Both the position numbers and the translations under genes were made by a program. 64,000 nucleotides of DNA from an uncultured Candidatus Berkelbacteria bacterium (GTDB taxonomy: Bacteria > Patescibacteriota > UBA1384 > UBA12157 > JAENIV01). This document shows positions 6,416 to 23,294 of the stretch, one piece after another (positions within the stretch are counted from its first letter, which is position 1; every line of letters starts with the position of its first letter). The stretch spans positions 465,830 through 529,829 of the forward strand of contig OY969116.1 of the NCBI GenBank assembly GCA_963698075.1. The letters are read 5' to 3'. The notes beneath the pieces are model-generated. The model saw only the letters and a program-made list of their open reading frames with translations, was not told the DNA's origin and searched no databases.

Positions 6416-6677
6416 AGGGGTTTACAAGATGATTTTAACACAAATTAACCTCATCGTCGATTATCTCTTGACTTGGAGAAGTTATCCTGCCGAAAAGCAG
6501 GAAAAGACCGCCGATTATTGACGGAGGGATTTATATATGTTATTGTTGGAATATACGCTTCATCGCGAAAGGAGGCGAGGCCTATCGCATCATACCAACA
6601 TTGTCCTACAAACCAGCAGTAAACGCAGTTTCCGCAGTAGTAGTTACCGCAGAATATCCTTGGAGGAAGAGGAGCCC

Positions 6678-6857
6678 ATGGGCGACGAATGCAAGCCGAA
6701 GGTAGTGGTCGTGACGCTGCCGAAGTGTTTGGCAGGCAGCGGAGTCAGGATCAAGTTCAGCGATTGCGCAACTGAAGCCTCGGTGTGCGTCCAGGACGTC
6801 TGCTGCGAGGCCAAGCCGGCCGCACCGGCCGCACCGGCCGCAGGCGCGACCACGTAG
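6678..6857 (+). CDS. Small cysteine-rich peptide (59 aa) in the GC-rich island
   Basis: GGAGG lies 11 nt upstream of the ATG at 6678. The product is MGDECKPKVVVVTLPKCLAGSGVRIKFSDCATEASVCVQDVCCEAKPAAPAAPAAGATT with six Cys. A strong terminator follows. Confidence 0.3.
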   Translation: MGDECKPKVVVVTLPKCLAGSGVRIKFSDCATEASVCVQDVCCEAKPAAPAAPAAGATT

Positions 6858-6886
6858 GTCGCGAGAGGCGAAGTGATCAGTCCAAG

Positions 6887-6924
6887 GGCGGGTCGACACG
6901 AGGTCGACCCGCCCCTCTTTTTTA
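6887..6924 (+). terminator. Strong rho-independent terminator
   Basis: A 12-bp GC-rich stem GGGCGGGTCGAC/GTCGACCCGCCC with loop ACGA is followed by CTCTTTTTTAT. Confidence 0.6.
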
Positions 6925-6999
6925 TATAGGACTCTTGATTTCTTTTCTTAATTTGATATAGTCTGAATATCTGATCGCACCCAGAGAGGAGCCCGAAGC

Positions 7000-8289
7000 A
7001 TGTCCTTCAAACCCAGGAATCCGCTCGACGAACTGCTCAAGCTCAGCGATCAAGAACTGCTAGAGCGCGGCATCATCACGGCTCGAGAAATCGCCCAACA
7101 ACCAGAAATGTGGCGTGATACGGCCAGAAGATTCGTAAACTTTGCCCCGGGACTTATGAATCAAGACAACACTGCAACTTACGGTCTACTTGACGTCCAT
7201 CATTATGACTGGGGTGTTCCTCAGGCGGCAAAGCTACCTCATGAGATTATCTTCACCGGCGCTGGCACTTCTCATTTCGTCGGTCTCTGCGTCATGGATG
7301 CCGTAGGCAAGGGACTTGGTCTGCGCACACTCGCCATCCCCACCACCGATATCGTCACCCATCCCGAAGATGCCTTTCGCGTTGTCTGGGGCGAAGACTG
7401 GCCAAGCATATTGGTTTCCTTTGCTCGATCCGGCAACAGTCCCGAAAGTCTGGCGGTCATCGATATTGCTTTCAAGCAATGGCATCTTTTGCGACACCTG
7501 GTAATCACCTGTAATCCGGACGGCCAACTGGCAAAACGAGTGCAAACAACATCCAAAAGCCAGGTGCTTGTCCTCCATCCGGCAACGAATGACCGGGGGT
7601 TGGCGATGACCAGTTCCTTCACCTCAATGGTCATTGCTGGCTTAGGACTTGCTTACTTACTAAAGGGAGAACCTCTTTCCCCCCGCTACTGCGCCGACGT
7701 TGCCATTGCCGCCAAAGCGGCTGAACATCTCATGCGGGAATATGCCTACTACATAGAGCAGCTCATCAATCACAATGACTTCCGGCGGGCCTGCTTCCTC
7801 GGCTCAGGTTCGCTTTACGGCGCAGCGGTGGAGTCTCATCTCAAACTCCAGGAACTGACGGACGGCCAAATCATCTGCCTGGCTGATACCTTCCTCGGCA
7901 TCCGTCACGGTCCGCGCGCCGCCATCCGCGACGACACCCTCGTCGTCTATTTCCTCTCTTCTGACCCGGCGGTCAGACGCTACGAGATGGACCTTGTCCG
8001 CCAAAACCTCGAGCAGAAAGTTGGTGCCGCCCATGTAATGGTTTGCGCCAACGATCCGGAATATGAGATCGGCAAGCTCACGACGGCCAAGGGACCATTT
8101 CGCTGGGACTTCGGTGTGCCGAAGAAAGACCAGCTTCCCGACCACATGCTTGCCCCGGTAATGACGATCGTTGGCCAACTTCTCGGTTTCTTCGCCTCGC
8201 TTAAGTACGGCTTCAAACCGGATACGCCCAGCGCGAGCGGCTCGATCAGCCGCGTTGTCGAGGGCGTGACAATCTACCCACGCGAATAG
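7000..8289 (+). CDS. SIS-domain sugar isomerase, AgaS/GlmS-C-like (putative tagatose-6-phosphate or glucosamine-6-phosphate isomerase)
   Basis: Two SIS-like segments and an N-terminal region resembling the AgaS family. The gene is about 55% GC, far above background. Confidence 0.6.
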   Translation: MSFKPRNPLDELLKLSDQELLERGIITAREIAQQPEMWRDTARRFVNFAPGLMNQDNTATYGLLDVHHYDWGVPQAAKLPHEIIFTGAGTSHFVGLCVMDAVGKGLGLRTLAIPTTDIVTHPEDAFRVVWGEDWPSILVSFARSGNSPESLAVIDIAFKQWHLLRHLVITCNPDGQLAKRVQTTSKSQVLVLHPATNDRGLAMTSSFTSMVIAGLGLAYLLKGEPLSPRYCADVAIAAKAAEHLMREYAYYIEQLINHNDFRRACFLGSGSLYGAAVESHLKLQELTDGQIICLADTFLGIRHGPRAAIRDDTLVVYFLSSDPAVRRYEMDLVRQNLEQKVGAAHVMVCANDPEYEIGKLTTAKGPFRWDFGVPKKDQLPDHMLAPVMTIVGQLLGFFASLKYGFKPDTPSASGSISRVVEGVTIYPRE

Positions 8290-14426: not shown

Positions 14427-14616
14427 GGTGGCAGCGGCAAGATTCGAACTTGCGACCAACGGCTTATCTCTTCTTCGAATCAGAGATATTTTGCTTGGTG
14501 CCAGCGGCAGGATTTGAACCTGCGACCTAGGGCTTATGAGTCCCTCGCTCTACCCCTGAGCTACGCTGGCAAGCAAAATGGTGAGTCCGCTGCTCTACCA
14601 CTGAGCTACGCTGCCA
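14427..14616 (-). tRNA. Split CAU tRNA gene (5' exon about 14582-14616, 3' exon about 14427-14467 with encoded CCA) interrupted by a ~115-nt insert that contains a whole tRNA-Met gene
   Basis: 5' half: GGCAGCG-TA-GCTC-AGTGGTA-GAGC-A-GCGGA-CTCA. 3' half: (A)TAA-GCCGT-TGGTC-GCAAG-TTCGAAT-CTTGC-CGCTGCC-A-CCA. Joined, they give a perfect 76-nt cloverleaf with anticodon CAT. The insert is flanked by the 10-bp inverted repeat ATTTTGCTTG/CAAGCAAAAT. Confidence 0.5.
14496..14570 (-). tRNA. tRNA-Met (anticodon CAT), intact, nested inside the split tRNA
   Basis: Reverse complement: GCCAGCG-TA-GCTC-AGGGGTA-GAGC-G-AGGGA-CTCATAA-GCCCT-AGGTC-GCAGG-TTCAAAT-CCTGC-CGCTGGC-A-CCA. Confidence 0.8.
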
Positions 14617-14663
14617 CTTCTCAAAAAAAGGATATAATCCGTTTTAAAGGAAGGAATTTTGCT

Positions 14664-14738
14664 TGGTAGCGGGGGGCGGATTTGCACCGCCGATCTCGAG
14701 GTTATGAGCCTCGCGAGATACTACTTCTCCACCCCGCG
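14664..14738 (-). tRNA. Initiator-like tRNA-fMet (anticodon CAT) with atypical D and T loops
   Basis: Reverse complement: CGCGGGG-TG-GAGA-AGTAGTA-TCTC-G-CGAGG-CTCATAA-CCTCG-AGATC-GGCGG-TGCAAAT-CCGCC-CCCCGCT-A-CCA. It has a C1xU72 mismatch and an A11:U24 pair, both initiator hallmarks. The D loop lacks GG and the T loop is TGCAAAT. Confidence 0.65.
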
Positions 14739-14972
14739 TCGTAATATATCTTTGAGAAACTCCCTTCCGACACCACTCTTGAAATACTTCTCTTTTTTTC
14801 TAGCCTCTGTCCGCGACGAAAATTTCTCAGAATATATTAGTTTGTATGGTCTATATGCTTTTGTCGATCTATGATATCCATGCAGGTGTTCATGGAGCCT
14901 CCTCCTTATCGAATTAGTAATTCCCGTATATAAACGTTTATTATTATTCGCTAACACATAGACATAATACAT
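14721..14972 (-). CDS. GIY-YIG domain nuclease (YhbQ/URI-like, 83 aa)
   Basis: MYYVYVLANNNKRLYTGITNSIRRRLHEHLHG is the GIY-YIG motif. The last codons RGVEK-stop are encoded by the 5' end of the tRNA-fMet gene, an 18-nt overlap. Confidence 0.7.
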   Translation of the reverse strand: MYYVYVLANNNKRLYTGITNSIRRRLHEHLHGYHRSTKAYRPYKLIYSEKFSSRTEARKKEKYFKSGVGREFLKDILRRGVEK

Positions 14973-15146: not shown

Positions 15147-16241
15147 TTAAAATATCCAAGTAGCGGTAATTCCTACCTGCCGACCAGGCTGGCTTTTGGC
15201 AAGTTTACTTTTCCTTAAGATAACTAAACCAATCCCCGTCACAGCCAGGCCAGAAAAAACAATCACATAAATTATCCAATAATTTTTAAGGGAATTTTTG
15301 AAACCAGCAAATAAACCTTGTTCTTGCTCGCCCGTATTTTTGGTAATTACGGTTTTGTTGACGGTTAATTTTCCCAAGATCAAATTCGAGGATGTCCCAG
15401 CTTTATCTTTAGCCACAATTTTAACCTCGGCAGTCCCCTCTTTTTCGATTTTTTGACGAACTGTATAAGTTTTTTCACCATCGTTACTGGTGATTGTCGG
15501 CGCTTCCAAAAGATTTATCTTCTGATCAAAAACCTGGGCTTCAAGGCTTTGAACATCACCAGTAATCGTCGCTCCAAAAGTGACCTCCTCGCCAGCAAAA
15601 ATCGTTTGGGGAGAAAATGAAGATTTTTCCCTCACAAAAACCACCGGTTCGACTGAGGATGTCGGGGTTGGATTGGGATTAGCCGACTGATTGGCTTGAG
15701 GCTGGTTAGTAGTTTCGTTTGCCGGGGTCGCCTGTTCTGAAGCAACTTCCCCACCTTCAAGCGGCGTCCCAAATTCTTGAGCCACTAAAATCGTCTCTGC
15801 CCCCTCATAAGTGCCGGAGATGACGGCAATACCAATTTCTCGAAAGTTGGGATTTAAAATATTTTGACGGTGAGTGGCAGAAGCCATCCAAGCATTAAAA
15901 AGTTCGCTAGCATCAGTATAGCCAATAGCCAAGTTCTCGCCGGCATAGGAATAATTATAACCCGCGCCTTTAATAAAGTCCCAAGGGGTTTTCCCCGAAG
16001 GTGAAGTATGGGCAAAATATTGATTGGTAAGCATATCTTGGGCTTTAGCATAAGCCGCCGAAGAAAGTTTTGAGTTGGAAGTTAGCGCTCCCAGACCGTT
16101 ACGGGCGCGCGCCGAATTAGTCATTGAAACTAAGGATCCAGCTGAATAGGCCGCTTGAGCATAGCTAAAATTCGCGAGAACTAATGAAAGAAAAATAAAT
16201 CCGCTAATAAATTTTAAAACTTTGATTTTTGTTTTTGACAC
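15147..16241 (-). CDS. Secreted/anchored CAP-domain (SCP/PR-1, YkwD-like) protein with Pro/Thr-rich linker and C-terminal TM
   Basis: Signal peptide, then the CAP-domain core YFAHTSPSG...GENLA...W..S..H..N. C-terminal TM segment followed by RKSKLAK. Confidence 0.65.
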   Translation of the reverse strand: MSKTKIKVLKFISGFIFLSLVLANFSYAQAAYSAGSLVSMTNSARARNGLGALTSNSKLSSAAYAKAQDMLTNQYFAHTSPSGKTPWDFIKGAGYNYSYAGENLAIGYTDASELFNAWMASATHRQNILNPNFREIGIAVISGTYEGAETILVAQEFGTPLEGGEVASEQATPANETTNQPQANQSANPNPTPTSSVEPVVFVREKSSFSPQTIFAGEEVTFGATITGDVQSLEAQVFDQKINLLEAPTITSNDGEKTYTVRQKIEKEGTAEVKIVAKDKAGTSSNLILGKLTVNKTVITKNTGEQEQGLFAGFKNSLKNYWIIYVIVFSGLAVTGIGLVILRKSKLAKSQPGRQVGITATWIF

Positions 16242-16284
16242 ATCCCCTCCTGAGGATTTTATCCCTTTTTGAGGATATTAAAGT

Positions 16285-16313
16285 ATTGTACCATAAAAAT
16301 CGCCCCGTGTCAA
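16285..16313 (-). promoter_or_regulatory. Sigma70-like promoter for the CAP-domain gene
   Basis: On the minus strand, TTGACA (16308-16313), a 17-nt spacer, then TACAAT (16285-16290). An AGGAGG ribosome-binding site and the ATG follow about 40 nt downstream. Confidence 0.5.
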
Positions 16314-16480
16314 TACACGGTGTTCAAATTTCTAAGCTCCAATTTCTAAATAGCGAGCCATGTGTCCTCAAAAGTGGCTCTCGCAGGCCAAAAAGCACGG
16401 TCCCAGAGCGAAGCGGCGGGTTTTTGGCCGAGAGCGCAGGCACCGATTGCGCGCTGGAGCAATCGTAGTGCCGGCATCTT

Positions 16481-16509
16481 TTGACGGATACTGGCGAGCG
16501 ATATATAAT
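16481..16509 (+). promoter_or_regulatory. Sigma70-like promoter (TTGACG-17-TATAAT) reading into the GC-rich non-coding region
   Basis: TTGACG at 16481-16486, spacer GATACTGGCGAGCGATA, then TATAAT at 16504-16509. Confidence 0.45.
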
Positions 16510-16515
16510 AAAAAT

Positions 16516-16762
16516 GAGTTGACCGATCAATCGGGATGATGGATGAAAGGGGGTGATCTAGGAAGAAGTCTAATACTGTCTGTCCTCGGTGACTAGAGCC
16601 CTGCCGGCGTCATCGAGAAAAAAAGACGTGTGTATGTGGGTCGGTTGTAACTGGTCCCGTTGGGTTAGCAGGTCCAGCGGGGCCAGCTCTCATTCGACTC
16701 TTCTCATCGACATGCCTCTTGTGGTCCAGGGCCACTCCCCATGGGGTGGCCCTGTTGTTTTT
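16516..16762 (+). ncRNA. Candidate structured small RNA (~245 nt) of unknown class
   Basis: About 55-60% GC in a ~37% GC background. It starts about 7 nt after a consensus promoter. It ends at a 12-bp GC hairpin CAGGGCCACTCC/GGGGTGGCCCTG followed by TTGTTTTT. No convincing ORF. It contains a CAGGTCC segment loosely like SRP RNA helix 8, which I could not verify. Confidence 0.3.
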
Positions 16763-16783
16763 AAAAACTATCCGGATTTACGC

Positions 16784-16808
16784 AAAAACCCGCGGTTAGC
16801 GGGTTTTT
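16784..16808. terminator. Bidirectional intrinsic terminator
   Basis: AAAAACCCGC-GGTTA-GCGGGTTTTT has A/T runs on both sides. It lies just downstream of the minus-strand LPXTG gene. Confidence 0.5.
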
Positions 16809-16837
16809 GCTTTGTTTTTGATTTTGAATTTTTTAAA

Positions 16838-17341
16838 TTAAATCTTAATTTTTTGCCAACCGCGAACCTTTAAGTAATAGGTCAACATCAGCGAGCCGAT
16901 TATCAAGAAATAATAGATCCAGATGTAATTAACATCAGCACCAGTAACCGGTAATGTGCTTACTTCTGACGCCGTTGTGCCTAAAACTTGCGGAGTTGGA
17001 GTGGACCTTAAAGTTCCACCACCCTGGCAGCAGGGAGTATTGGTCAAGGTTGGGGTTGGGGTTGGTGTGGGCGTGCAAGTTGGGGTGGGAGTCGGTGTTG
17101 GCTGAGTTTTCCCAGGGCAACCCCCTGCAGGGGCTGGGATGATATCGCCACTGTGATGGATGTGACCATTAAGCTGACCCTGGTTGTCAACGGTAATTGT
17201 CACATATGGATTAGTTGCCGATCCTGTATGATGACACAAGGTTACCGGCTGAAAACCGCTACTTGATTGTTTCGCCTGGACAACTGAAGCAACAGAAACC
17301 ACCAATAAGAAAATGATTAAGCCAGCAAAAATTTTCGACAT
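16838..17341 (-). CDS. LPXTG-anchored surface protein (sortase substrate)
   Basis: Signal peptide, a TPTPTPTCTPTPTPTPT linker, and a C-terminal LPVTG followed by a hydrophobic segment and KVRGWQKIKI. Confidence 0.7.
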   Translation of the reverse strand: MSKIFAGLIIFLLVVSVASVVQAKQSSSGFQPVTLCHHTGSATNPYVTITVDNQGQLNGHIHHSGDIIPAPAGGCPGKTQPTPTPTPTCTPTPTPTPTLTNTPCCQGGGTLRSTPTPQVLGTTASEVSTLPVTGADVNYIWIYYFLIIGSLMLTYYLKVRGWQKIKI

Positions 17342-17370
17342 AAATTTCCCTTCCTAGCCCTCCACAATTT

Positions 17371-18021
17371 TCAATATTTTTTTCTAGCCTTAAGTTTTAA
17401 TATAAAAATATTTATTCCCGCCACTAAAAATAAGCCAATCAAAACGGTTATTACCGAGAGTACTGCATTATATCCAGTCTCCGGAAGACTTATAACACCC
17501 TCCGGGCCCACGGATTCTCCAAGGATACCCTTAGTTCCCCCACCCGACACTGCCTGCTCAAGCCAGCCGAAGATTAAATCAAATTTGACCTCTTGAGCTT
17601 GATATTCATTTCCGACATCATCCATTGCCACCTTGATATCGTAAACATAAGTGGTGCTGGCAGGAATATTTTCTAAAAAAGTTTCCGTGTCTTTGAGCGT
17701 TGATAATTTACTATTATATAAAGAGTTGCCGCCGCGCGAGATATCTACTGTTAAAACCGCAGCCAATTTTTCATCAGGCGTGCCTAAAAGATTTTGTAAA
17801 TTTAGCGCAAATTTTTGAGAACTATCGGTCAGATTTTTAACCGTGATTTGCTTGGTCACCGAGGAAAGCGGGGCTAAATTGGTTTCATTAAATAATGGCC
17901 CGGGTTGGCCGGCATAAGTCAGCTCAAACGAACCATTGGCTTGGGCTTTAGAGGCAAAACTAAAAATTCCTATGAGGGCTAAAATGAGCCAGAAAATTAA
18001 AAGGAGGGTGCGAAATTTCAT
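17371..18021 (-). CDS. LPXTG-anchored surface protein (sortase substrate)
   Basis: Signal peptide and a C-terminal LPETG followed by a TM segment and KLKARKKY. Confidence 0.7.
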   Translation of the reverse strand: MKFRTLLLIFWLILALIGIFSFASKAQANGSFELTYAGQPGPLFNETNLAPLSSVTKQITVKNLTDSSQKFALNLQNLLGTPDEKLAAVLTVDISRGGNSLYNSKLSTLKDTETFLENIPASTTYVYDIKVAMDDVGNEYQAQEVKFDLIFGWLEQAVSGGGTKGILGESVGPEGVISLPETGYNAVLSVITVLIGLFLVAGINIFILKLKARKKY

Positions 18022-18069
18022 AAATATTCCTTTCCCCTCCTAAGTTAAATCCTAAATTCTAATATCTAA

Positions 18070-18546
18070 TTATTCGGGAATTGATGAAGATTCGGATGGT
18101 GTAGGTGATGGTGATTCAGATGGTGAGACTGAAGGAGATGGAGACGGTGAGAGAGTAGCACCTAATGGCCCAGCCGGAATTTCACAATTATTATTCCAAA
18201 TTGCCTGTCCAGCTGTATCCCAGTTTTGTCCAGGAAAATACTGAATTGGATCGCCATAATAAAACGGTGGAATAATATCTCTTCCACCCTGATGGCTAGG
18301 TCCCACATGGCCGTTAATAACCCCTTCTGGATCTGGCGAAATGTTTTGATAATGGCCCTCTTGTCCAGTGGCATGACAAATTCTAACATTAGCACTCACG
18401 CTCGGCGAAGGCGTGGGTGTTTGCCACGTGCCGGCCACAATCTCGTTATTATCTATGCTACCTCTGGCAGTAAAATAAGCTGAGCTAGTAATTGCTAAAA
18501 CAGATACGGCAGCGAAAATGAAAAAGATTGATTTGAACGTTCTCAT
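18070..18546 (-). CDS. Secreted protein with a Ser/Pro-rich C-terminal tail
   Basis: Signal peptide and SPSPSPSVSPSESPSPTPSESS low-complexity tail. No sorting motif. Confidence 0.45.
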   Translation of the reverse strand: MRTFKSIFFIFAAVSVLAITSSAYFTARGSIDNNEIVAGTWQTPTPSPSVSANVRICHATGQEGHYQNISPDPEGVINGHVGPSHQGGRDIIPPFYYGDPIQYFPGQNWDTAGQAIWNNNCEIPAGPLGATLSPSPSPSVSPSESPSPTPSESSSIPE

Positions 18547-19130
18547 GTTACCTTCTTTCCCTCTTTCCTTAATCTTAATTCTTTTTTAATATTATTGATT
18601 TCGTCATAAATAATTAAAAGTGCGGGTATAATAATTAAAATAATAAAACCAGGTGTTGTCCTAGTGAAAGCGATAACATAACCAAGGTATGATATATGGG
18701 AGAATACTTTACCAATTATTTGTCCGCCCAAGATTTTGTCCAAATCTAAAGTGTTATTAGCATCACCTTTGGTCGTGTAAATTTTCGTACTATCAACTTC
18801 CTCGATCTGTTTTATTCTATGAGTAACAGGTTCTTTTGTATTAATTTTATTAAAAGTTATAATATCACCGACATTGTATTCTTCGGAAGGTCTTACAAAT
18901 ACCAAGCTCCCAGTTTTAATGGCTGGCTCCATTGAGCCTGATCTAACAACTAAAATTCTGAAATTTTTTGGAATTCCTCTTGAAGACATTAAAGATAATG
19001 CACCAACAATTACAAGAATTGCTAAAACAATCCAATAAATTATATTGGTTATTTTTTTGTACAATGGGTTTTTAAAATATTTGTTCATACTAATAAACCC
19101 GGTAGGTTGCGCAAATGGTTGCGCAACCAT
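18543..19130 (-). CDS. Signal peptidase I, SipW-type (S26B / archaeal-eukaryal type)
   Basis: N-terminal TM segment, then a catalytic-Ser box VVRSGSMEPAIKTGSLVFV and a second C-terminal TM segment. It sits directly next to a TasA-like gene. Confidence 0.7.
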   Translation of the reverse strand: MVAQPFAQPTGFISMNKYFKNPLYKKITNIIYWIVLAILVIVGALSLMSSRGIPKNFRILVVRSGSMEPAIKTGSLVFVRPSEEYNVGDIITFNKINTKEPVTHRIKQIEEVDSTKIYTTKGDANNTLDLDKILGGQIIGKVFSHISYLGYVIAFTRTTPGFIILIIIPALLIIYDEINNIKKELRLRKEGKKVT

Positions 19131-19137
19131 TCTGGAT

Positions 19138-19677
19138 TTACAAGTTTTCCGCTACAAAGATTTCATCCCAAGTACATGTAGTATTCTGATAAGGATCGTC
19201 GGCTGAAGGATCTAACTGGGCACGTTGCTTAATAACTTGGCTGATGTTGGGATTCAATTGATCAAATGGCGGATTAACTGTGGTTTCGACACGGTTGCCT
19301 GCACCAGTGATACCTGCTAACGAACCATTGTAAAGCAGATGGACTGTTTCATCACCACCCGCCCAACCAGTTCTAACCTCTAGATTGGTTTTGGGACAAG
19401 CGGCACCGGAAACATTATCAACATACATATAAACATTGGTTGGCAATGAACCGGTATTATAAAGTTCTGCTCTTCCCCAAGGTGTCCATTGTCCAGGAGC
19501 CATATTAGAAGTATTAATCGGTTTATTACCGCTGAAGTTATGGACTACGAGATCAACGCTACCACTAGAGATGGTGTTACCTGTAATCTGGTCTTGAGCA
19601 GTAAAAAGAGCGGAAGTCGTACCACCAACTAAAGCCGCCATGGCCATAATAACGACTAAACTTTTTAAAATTTTCAC
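19138..19677 (-). CDS. TasA/camelysin-like secreted protein with a SipW-cognate-type signal peptide
   Basis: MKILKSLVVIMAMAALVGGTTSALFTAQDQITGNTISSGSVDL matches the hallmark GGT..A.F....(T/N)....N.....G.(L/V)DL of SipW-dependent signal peptides. Confidence 0.55.
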   Translation of the reverse strand: MKILKSLVVIMAMAALVGGTTSALFTAQDQITGNTISSGSVDLVVHNFSGNKPINTSNMAPGQWTPWGRAELYNTGSLPTNVYMYVDNVSGAACPKTNLEVRTGWAGGDETVHLLYNGSLAGITGAGNRVETTVNPPFDQLNPNISQVIKQRAQLDPSADDPYQNTTCTWDEIFVAENL

Positions 19678-22244: not shown

Positions 22245-23003
22245 AGATTTATCCCACCCCTGGGGTGGGATTTCAATGGTTCAATCAATCAATAAAGCTT
22301 TGATTTTAGAAAGTTGACGCTGATAAGCGGCTCTATCAAGGACAAATTTGCGATAAGAGGATGGTTTTATCTCAAAAAGATCCGCGTATTCACAAAGCGC
22401 TTTTTCCTCTTGCCCCAAATATTCTTTATAGGATGAATAAGTCCATTCCTCGGGTTTTTTAACCAACGATGCCGAGACGGGATTGAGGTGGATGTAGCGC
22501 GTTAAATGCAGTAATTGTTCGTCGTTCTTGACTAAAATATTTTTAAACTTGGCTTCCCACAAAGGCCCTTTTCTTTTGTGTTTGGAATTAAAATATCGGG
22601 TATAACTATTTAAAATATTGCCAAAATATTTGGAGATCCCGTCGTCCTGTAATTGTTTTAAAATAAGATGAATATGGGTTGGCATAATGCAAAAAGCAAT
22701 TATCTCTACGAGGTCATCCCCATCTTTTGTAAGCGCTTCAAAATAATTATCAAAGCCCTGTTTGGCCACACCTTCAAGAATAATAAAATCGGAAAATTTT
22801 ATGTCCGTTTCCCTCTGATAAAATCTTAATAATTGACGCATCCTTTGATAATCTTGTTTATCATTAAAAATTTTGTATTCAGCGATACTTCTACTTAAAA
22901 CATGGTAAATTTCGTCATTAACTAAGGGTACTTTCCGCTTCATAATTTTATAATACATAAATCTTTAACCTTCTACAACCCACCCCAGGGGTGAGTTATG
23001 GAT
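22245..23003 (-). mobile_element. IS200/IS605-like minimal insertion sequence (Y1 HUH transposase flanked by subterminal hairpins)
   Basis: Hairpins ATCCCACC-CCTGG-GGTGGGAT (22252-22272) and CACCC-CAG-GGGTG (about 22977-22997) bracket a RAYT/TnpA-like gene. Confidence 0.55.
22281..22958 (-). CDS. Y1 HUH tyrosine transposase, IS200/RAYT-like (225 aa)
   Basis: HUH motif AFCIMPTHIHLIL and catalytic-Tyr motif TRYIHLNPV, as in IS200 TnpA and REP-associated tyrosine transposases. Confidence 0.7.
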   Translation of the reverse strand: MYYKIMKRKVPLVNDEIYHVLSRSIAEYKIFNDKQDYQRMRQLLRFYQRETDIKFSDFIILEGVAKQGFDNYFEALTKDGDDLVEIIAFCIMPTHIHLILKQLQDDGISKYFGNILNSYTRYFNSKHKRKGPLWEAKFKNILVKNDEQLLHLTRYIHLNPVSASLVKKPEEWTYSSYKEYLGQEEKALCEYADLFEIKPSSYRKFVLDRAAYQRQLSKIKALLID

Positions 23004-23081: not shown

Positions 23082-23197
23082 TGGGCACACCAGGACTCGA
23101 ACCTGGAACCAGTTGTGTCTAAAACCTTCACAAAAATGGGATCGGATGGATTCGAACTATCGGCAACCTCCTTATTTCAAAATGTGCAACTTAAAAA
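23082..23197 (-). pseudogene. tRNA 3'-half fragments (two T-arm/acceptor remnants)
   Basis: 23082-23136 reverse complement: TGGTT-CCAGG-TTCGAGT-CCTGG-TGTGCCC-A. 23137-23175 reverse complement: ATAA-GGAGG-TTGCC-GATAG-TTCGAAT-CCATC-CGATCCC-A. Neither fragment has a contiguous 5' half. Confidence 0.4.
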
Positions 23198-23269
23198 TGC
23201 GCACGCCTGGATTCGGACCAGGAACCGTCGCCTTATAAGAGCGATGCTCTGCCATTGAGCTACGTGCGC
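23198..23269 (-). tRNA. tRNA-Ile (anticodon TAT)
   Basis: Reverse complement: GCGCACG-TA-GCTC-AATGGCA-GAGC-A-TCGCT-CTTATAA-GGCGA-CGGTT-CCTGG-TCCGAAT-CCAGG-CGTGCGC-A. No encoded CCA. Flanked by the 12-bp inverted repeat TTTCAAAATGTG (23175-23186) / CACATTTTGAAA (23269-23280). Confidence 0.75.
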
Positions 23270-23294
23270 ACATTTTGAAAAATGTCTAACATTT

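Follow-up and report, generated by a model that had tools for sequence, protein, structure and literature searches.

In Bacillus, extended Shine-Dalgarno (SD) sequences that do not initiate translation of an adjacent open reading frame (ORF) are known as stabilizing SD (STAB-SD) motifs. In the cry3A mRNA, such a sequence within the 5' untranslated region (UTR) stabilizes the message via 30S binding (Agaisse & Lereclus 1996, according to the description given in PMC12970973; listed in PMC7509114), and a ribosome block to RNase J1 has been described for the hbs mRNA (PMC5737220). [quoted passage not shown] Here we analyzed a 64,000-nt stretch of DNA from an uncultured Candidatus Berkelbacteria bacterium (contig OY969116.1, positions 465,830 to 529,829; hereafter the window), and focused on an intergenic island at 16242-16837, which lies between two minus-strand genes: a CAP-domain gene (15147-16241) and a gene for a 167-aa LPVTG-motif protein (16838-17341). 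We found that the island probably holds a real but narrowly distributed and often-lost non-coding sRNA gene on the + strand, whose one unusual feature is a conserved, very extended SD-like motif without an ORF. A GC-rich palindromic element (16353-16500) lies upstream of it.

Comparison with the described systems revealed both shared and distinct features. As in the Bacillus STAB-SD, the complementarity to the 16S rRNA 3' end is extended, is located tens of nucleotides from the 5' end and does not initiate an adjacent ORF, and the mechanism that could be proposed by analogy is the same, namely shielding of the RNA by the 30S subunit. In contrast with the Bacillus cases, the motif is part of a stand-alone terminated RNA with no downstream gene, belongs to a bacterium of the Candidate Phyla Radiation (CPR) and is known from sequence alone. 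The unit resembles the Rsa-type RNAs in having its own promoter and an intrinsic terminator in the Hfq-independent style, as well as a short C/U-rich run complementary to SD sequences; it differs from them in showing no sequence or Rfam similarity, in having one CU-run instead of several, and in the predicted masking of this run by a G-run. Like the DIMPL-type candidates, it is found in a long GC-rich intergenic region with conserved hairpins in an AT-richer genome, whereas it matches none of the families of those screens contained in Rfam 15 and its distribution is much narrower. CPR/Patescibacteria are ultra-small, uncultured and probably host-dependent bacteria with reduced genomes, and our literature search found no described regulatory RNA from this group.

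A promoter-to-terminator unit upstream of the CAP-domain gene

First, a previous reading of this DNA, made from the sequence only, had noted a pair of divergent consensus promoters, both of which are present: TTGACG-17-TATAAT on the + strand at 16481-16509 (-10 box at 16504-16509) and TTGACA-17-TACAAT for the CAP gene on the minus strand at 16313-16285 (-35 box at 16313-16308, -10 box at 16290-16285). Sites matching at least 11 of the 12 promoter positions occurred nine times on the two strands of the window compared with 3.2 +/- 1.7 times in shuffled sequences (about three-fold), and two of these nine near-consensus sites stand back to back in the island. Second, the 12-bp GC hairpin with a U-tract reported at 16727-16762 was confirmed as an intrinsic terminator (hairpin at 16727-16754, nine G-C pairs, followed by the T-tract). 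With its start predicted from the -10 box and its end from the T-tract, the candidate sRNA is about 247 nt long (16515-16762, + strand). The same reading had placed a promoter-to-terminator sRNA of about 245 nt here; judging from its kept signals and the lack of an ORF this unit is probably real, and a plausible new sRNA gene with correctly read transcription signals had been recognized. The GGCCAAAAA...TTTTTGGCC enclosure noted in the same reading lies upstream of the RNA start and belongs to the palindromic element.

Relatives were defined as loci encoding CAP homologs of 50-83% identity, and twelve exact-protein look-ups yielded three RNA-bearing loci. In these CPR (Berkelbacteria-like) metagenome contigs, the + strand unit recurs syntenically between the CAP promoter and a bidirectional terminator that serves the convergent LPVTG gene (16782-16810 in the window) and is kept in all relatives: L003 (3892-3645, minus strand, about 243 nt), L019 (~165-1, minus strand, at least 161 nt, cut by the contig end) and L006 (3892-3772, minus strand, a 116-nt short form). 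The segment TATAATAAAAA, which covers the -10 box and the start region, was invariant in all four homologs. The remaining promoter elements are TTGACG-16-TATAAT in L019, TTAACG-18-TATAAT in L006 and an extended -10 box (TGCTATAAT) in L003. The terminators of L003 and L006 have other stem sequences that form equally strong hairpins with a T-tract after them; between the window and L003, five of the 12 stem pairs differ on both sides, and both sequences remain 12-bp hairpins followed by a T-tract. The unit thus has the properties of a stand-alone sRNA gene, that is, a promoter and an intrinsic terminator of its own that are kept in relatives, and no coding signature.

Among the other relatives, only the first ~10 nt of the sRNA are left in L004/L005 (a stub or relic), and the sRNA is absent in L010, L011, L013 and the outgroup L008, where the bidirectional terminator is found within about 10-20 nt of the CAP -35 box. 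The L006 form has lost about half of the RNA relative to its sister L019. A neighbor-joining tree of the CAP proteins contained two RNA-bearing clades, (window, L003) and (L019, L018, L006), with the RNA-less loci nested between them; therefore, the unit is ancestral in the sampled clade, was lost at least twice and was cut to 116 nt once. The RNA is accessory, and is best read as a dispensable, lineage-specific sRNA. No paralog was identified by nhmmer with a four-sequence profile over 178 kb (the window plus 21 loci of 114 kb), which returned the syntenic copies only. Exact-pattern scans gave two chance matches in JGI metagenomes, L016 (where a genuine SD precedes a GTG start) and L017 (within an ORF), and no match in IMG/VR viral contigs, and a three-part pattern gave two chance matches, both in Bacteroidota, among GTDB species genomes. 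The family is known from four contigs, all at one locus.

This distribution raises the question of whether the island contains only a decaying relic of an old transcription unit, either a small gene or an sRNA, which is now functionless and whose blocks survive by chance or because they overlap regulatory DNA of the CAP gene. The absences listed above, the 10-nt stub and the half-lost form would all suit a relic, and so would the RNA identity between the window and L003 (0.60), which is no higher than the identity at four-fold-degenerate sites of the adjacent CAP gene (0.66), so that most of the RNA is about neutral. However, four-fold sites between the two clades are saturated (identity 0.40), and a 12-nt block is nevertheless identical across them, with a probability of ~2e-5 per pair under neutrality at 0.40 per site. 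Three of the four homologs have an identical AAGGGGGUGAUC, and the fourth differs from it by compatible changes; UCAUCGAG, which forms the 3' strand of hairpin A (see below), is kept in the three long forms, and the base of hairpin B is also among the blocks that survive between the saturated clades. Moreover, all four homologs share an unchanged -10 box and A-run, the terminator stem has been maintained in spite of its five both-sided changes, the changes of the SD-like motif in L019 preserve its pairing with the 16S tail, and the conserved blocks are 230-500 nt from the CAP start, outside the CAP promoter. On balance, a functionless relic appears unlikely, although it is the most probable of the alternatives that we considered.

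Folding analysis was also consistent with a structured RNA read from the + strand. The z-score of 16515-16765 was -4.0 on this strand, and the predicted fold of the sRNA (-104.6 kcal/mol) was better by 19.5 kcal/mol than that of the minus strand (-85.1 kcal/mol). Hairpin A (CUCGGUGAC...GUCAUCGAG, 16585-16617, + strand) appeared whenever the RNA of the window, L003 or L019 was folded to minimum energy; in L003 it is formed by CUCGAUGAUU/AAUCAUCGAG, with one compensatory change from C-G to U-A, one change from G.U to A-U and an unrelated loop. Hairpin B (CUGGUCCCGUUGGG...UCCAGCGGGGCCAG, 16651-16686, + strand) likewise belongs to the minimum-energy fold of each of the three long forms. Its base, CUGG(U/C)CC/GGG(G)CCAG, is kept among homologs. 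Its stem varies in length: the window has 14 bp, L003 has 7 bp capped by a UUCG loop, and L019 has about 9-16 bp. The covariation term of RNAalifold was about zero (+1.64), based on only three or four sequences whose multi-branch folds differ. Because of this small number of sequences, the structural conservation should be regarded as a set of indications, not as statistics.

Searches of RNA families supported the earlier statement that the unit does not match RNase P, transfer-messenger RNA (tmRNA), 6S or signal recognition particle (SRP) RNA. At gathering thresholds, an Rfam 15 scan detected only five transfer RNAs (tRNAs) in the window and assigned no known family to the island; at E<=10, the island, L003 and L019 gave only terminator-like low-score matches, with no family recurring in all three, and ARAGORN found no tmRNA. 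One sub-threshold match, to CRISPR-DR13 at the sRNA 5' end of L003 (3865-3894, minus strand), scored 31.4 bits against a gathering score of 37 and is probably due to chance, since the window and L019 had no such match. The suggested resemblance of a CAGGUCC segment to SRP helix 8 proved spurious: the segment (16669-16675) belongs to an extension of hairpin B that the closest relative does not have, and it is not conserved.

The extended Shine-Dalgarno-like motif and its possible role

The best-conserved internal element of the sRNA is the motif GAAAGGGGGUGAUC (16545-16558, + strand), which is the reverse complement of the canonical 16S rRNA 3' tail GAUCACCUCCUUUC(U), with one G.U pair. The window, L003 and L006 share AAGGGGGTGATC without change, and L019 has AGAAGGGGGGUGGUC; its two differences, an additional G and an A-to-G substitution, maintain pairing with the tail and even lengthen it. 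The uninterrupted complementary run is 14 nt (14-15 bp of complementarity overall), compared with best runs of 4-9 nt for 39 of the window's 40 ORFs of 150 aa or more and of 13 nt for the remaining one. The predicted duplex of motif and 16S tail reached -25.0 kcal/mol in all four homologs, compared with -10 to -22 kcal/mol for five real SD contexts. No AUG, GUG or UUG is present 4-12 nt downstream of the motif in the window, L003 or L006, and hence the motif has, on sequence, the two properties of a STAB-SD, extended 16S complementarity and no start codon at initiating distance.

An SD-like motif of such perfection might simply drive translation of a short ORF, and a few reading frames appear to fit a small protein-coding gene. 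In L019, an AUG 6 nt after the G-run opens a 10-codon ORF, and L003 and L006 contain ORFs of about 46-52 codons that begin at a GUG inside the motif. However, the AUG-initiated frame of L019 is not conserved, the window has no start codon in reach (its GUG AUC UAG is an ORF of two codons), and the possible ORFs of the four homologs agree neither in frame nor in length or sequence. Indels of 1, 4 and 22 nt, which are not multiples of three, break the reading frames between the window and L003, and Pfam gave no family match among the five ORFs of the island. No ORF is conserved, and a small protein-coding gene is highly improbable. A separate candidate, translation with UGA as a sense codon, was rejected, as it creates a long ORF in the window only and L003 has UAA in that frame.

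A second short element of interest is a CU-rich, anti-SD-like run just before the terminator, UGCCUCU in the window (16713-16719, + strand), CGCCCCU in L003 and CGCCUCU in L006. Both the consensus fold and the minimum-energy fold of L006 pair it with the G-run of the SD-like motif. The helix was rejected as a universal feature of the family, since it is optimal only in L006 and, when imposed, carries a penalty of +3.9 kcal/mol for the window and +9.7 kcal/mol for L003. The CAP mRNA was likewise rejected as a target, because shuffled controls performed at least as well as the best duplexes of the sRNA with the CAP 5' UTR in each of the four genomes.

Based on these observations, we tentatively propose that the island contains a lineage-specific sRNA of ~247 nt with a STAB-SD-like stabilizing motif and a CU seed, together with a separate palindromic insertion, and assign this explanation a probability of roughly 0.45. 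The sRNA would be transcribed divergently from the CAP gene from a sigma-70-type promoter and would end at the intrinsic terminator. Its 14-15-nt 'super-SD' without an ORF may recruit a 30S subunit or a ribosome without translation, and such binding might shield the sRNA from 5'-end-dependent decay, which would result in a long-lived RNA. We suggest ribosome protection of the sRNA as the role of the motif because of the STAB-SD precedent, in which 30S binding stabilizes mRNA. The conserved GCCYCU run before the terminator could pair either with the internal G-run or with SD regions of mRNAs, and would most likely be the regulatory seed.

Several points weigh against this proposal. The transcript itself is predicted from sequence signals only, and the 16S tail of the organism was assumed to be canonical (GAUCACCUCCUUUCU), its support being the SDs of local genes only. 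The four homologs, one of them truncated, give no statistical power for covariation, and the partner of the G-run differs between their minimum-energy folds. Repeated loss, the relic in L004 and the half-deletion in L006 imply weak selection, which adds to the nearly neutral identity of most of the RNA described above. The finding of only chance matches in JGI and GTDB indicates that the family is very narrow or that the patterns were too strict. Finally, the mobile nature of the palindromic element is unproven because no second copy was found.

The strength of the motif might instead suggest a trans-acting ribosome decoy that binds the 16S 3' tail, titrates or parks 30S subunits, and damps translation globally or aids hibernation. 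A complementarity of 14-15 nt and -25 kcal/mol exceeds that of every SD examined, the motif is the only strongly conserved internal element, and the minimal L006 form retains little beyond the motif and a CU-run able to mask it. However, to titrate ribosomes the product of a single sRNA gene would need to be extremely abundant, the RNA has been lost from close relatives, and the predicted folds leave the motif partly paired (mean unpaired probability 0.17-0.49); to our knowledge, such a decoy has no precedent. We consider it quite improbable, less so than a coding gene and more so than a relic, and the same applies to its wider version, in which the sRNA would be a new kind of ribosome-directed CPR regulatory RNA, with 30S decoy or parking switched by the CU-rich masking strand.

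The GC-rich palindromic element

The GC content of the island was lower than had been read from the sequence. About 600 bp of ~55% GC in a genome of ~37% GC had been described, whereas we measured 48.8% over 16229-16830 (top 10% of 600-nt windows) against a window mean of 40.7%, which is about half of the claimed contrast; only the core at 16352-16762 reaches 54.7% (top 1.5%). Coding DNA at 6600-8050 (SIS-domain protein, 7000-8289) has a GC content of 57-64%, above that of the island, and therefore high GC is not specific to RNA genes here. Furthermore, the island, which had been regarded as one structured RNA, is composite: upstream of the RNA start, between the divergent promoters, lies a palindromic element of 60% GC and 107-150 nt (16353-16500) that was found in this genome only. 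Its outer stem pairs 16357-16374 with 16478-16495, its first hairpin pairs GGCCAAAAA (16386-16394) with TTTTTGGCC (16421-16429), and its second hairpin pairs 16439-16450 with 16459-16472. The enclosure noted in the earlier reading does exist, at 16386-16429 instead of 16391-16434.

The element is absent at the same junction in L003, L004, L006 and L019. Only a few nucleotides separate the two -35 boxes in L006 and in L019 (where the sequence is GTCAAGCATCTTGACGG), and the palindromic insertion may have pushed apart two -35 boxes that were formerly back to back. The imperfect inverted ends GCCATGTGTCCTCAAAAG and GCCAGTATCCGTCAAAAG are about 18 nt long, the flanking imperfect direct repeats GCGAGCCATGTG and GCGAGCGATATA have 9 of their 12 positions in common, and the right end of the element supplies or overlaps the sRNA -35 box. 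The right boundary of the element is ambiguous, as GCATCTTTTGACGG is similar to L019's native promoter, and insertion here cannot be cleanly separated from deletion in the relatives. Two Logan contigs of the same organism from an independent assembly (L001 and L002, ERR10755944) are 100% identical to the window and end at 16382 and 16475, leaving a 92-nt stretch inside the element; these breaks could reflect a repeat, a polymorphism or low coverage of a strong hairpin.

With its short length, high GC content, lack of coding capacity, terminal inverted repeats, flanking direct repeats, outward-facing -35-like hexamer and presence that differs between related genomes, the element is similar to miniature inverted-repeat transposable elements (MITEs) or repetitive extragenic palindromic (REP) sequences. 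It differs from them in that no second copy was found, either by BLAST in the window and the 21 loci, by a 22-mer scan of GTDB genomes (a collection without the source genome), by a 21-mer scan of viral contigs, or by blastn against phages and plasmids. On this sequence evidence, the element would be a separate, genome-specific MITE/REP-like insertion and not part of the RNA, with a mobile origin as a possible explanation of its structure.

The possibility that a single large structured RNA, or a divergent SRP, 6S, RNase P or tmRNA, makes up the whole island (about 16340-16762) should also be viewed in this light. Both halves fold with z-scores of about -4, and CAGGUCC recalls SRP helix 8. However, every relative with the right half lacks the left half, the two halves are separated by a conserved promoter, and the left half shows no strand preference (z-scores of 16340-16500: -4.28 on the + strand and -4.37 on the minus strand); as described above, the Rfam matches were terminator-driven noise only, ARAGORN identified no tmRNA and the CAGGUCC segment belongs to a non-conserved extension. 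We therefore give this interpretation very little credence.

A gene for an IS200-like Y1 transposase of 225 aa (22281-22958, minus strand; Pfam Y1_Tnp, E=3e-10) was found 6 kb from the island. It is flanked at 22253-22269 and 22979-22995 by the palindrome CCCACCCC(W)GGGGTG(G/A)G, an arrangement resembling that of REP-associated tyrosine transposases (RAYT/REP-like) or of IS200. A link between this transposase and the palindromic element of the island was examined and rejected, since the flanking palindromes CCCACCCCWGGGGTGGG are unrelated to the element, with no similarity between them, and occur in just two copies in the window. Adjoining the transposase gene is a tRNA-Ile gene (23197-23270, minus strand) whose anticodon, UAU, is unusual in bacteria. 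Two apparent orphan tRNA 3' halves (T-arm plus acceptor) are located upstream of this tRNA gene, near 23083-23111 and 23138-23172, and may be scars of integration events.

Gene neighborhood and biological meaning

The gene content of the window is typical for a CPR/Patescibacteria genome, and the named homologs of the CAP-domain protein come from metagenome-assembled genomes of 'Candidatus Berkelbacteria' and 'Patescibacteria group'. The two genes flanking the island had been labeled surface-protein genes, which is fair because one product has a CAP domain (Pfam CAP, E=3e-20) and the other a signal peptide, a TP-rich linker, and LPVTG followed by a hydrophobic tail. A minus-strand run of genes for small secreted proteins with LPXTG-like C-termini extends over 16838-19677 (LPVTG in the 167-aa protein, LPETG in a 216-aa protein) and includes an S24/S26-type signal peptidase gene (18543-19130) and a gene for a 179-aa protein that matches no Pfam family and whose SD is complementary to the 16S tail over 13 nt; this run looks like a cell-surface or fiber-assembly cluster. 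On the other side of the CAP gene, two tRNA-Met(CAU) genes, 94 nt apart, lie within 14496-14972, and the 3' end of an ORF for a GIY-YIG nuclease (14721-14972, minus strand) overlaps the second of them (14664-14738) by 18 nt.

The region directly upstream of the CAP gene, comprising its 5' UTR and promoter (16242-16313, minus strand), showed features of its own. The CAP 5' UTR is by far the best-conserved part of the intergenic region, with 97% identity between the window and L003 and many invariant columns across eight relatives at 16242-16285. A duplicated AUCCUCA...GGGAU motif within this 5' UTR could mask the SD through pairing of AUCCUC with GGGGAU, and the 5' UTR may be a conserved translational leader. 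The palindrome CCGTGTCAATACACGG (16305-16320), which is common to L003 only, overlaps the CAP -35 box and looks like a terminator because GGCGATTTTT comes next on the minus strand. Upstream of the CAP promoter, the AT-rich spacer holds AATTTCTAA as a direct repeat (16327-16335 and 16341-16349), the two copies being 14 nt apart from start to start; the segment is deleted in L003, and since both copies also occur in L004, they may form a regulator-binding site.

The impact of the candidate sRNA is limited by its confinement to a handful of metagenomic contigs at one locus. Its frequent loss and remodeling illustrate the fast turnover of accessory sRNAs. If the proposed explanation is true, the RNA would provide a testable case of ribosome-mediated RNA protection, and possibly of ribosome targeting, outside Firmicutes.

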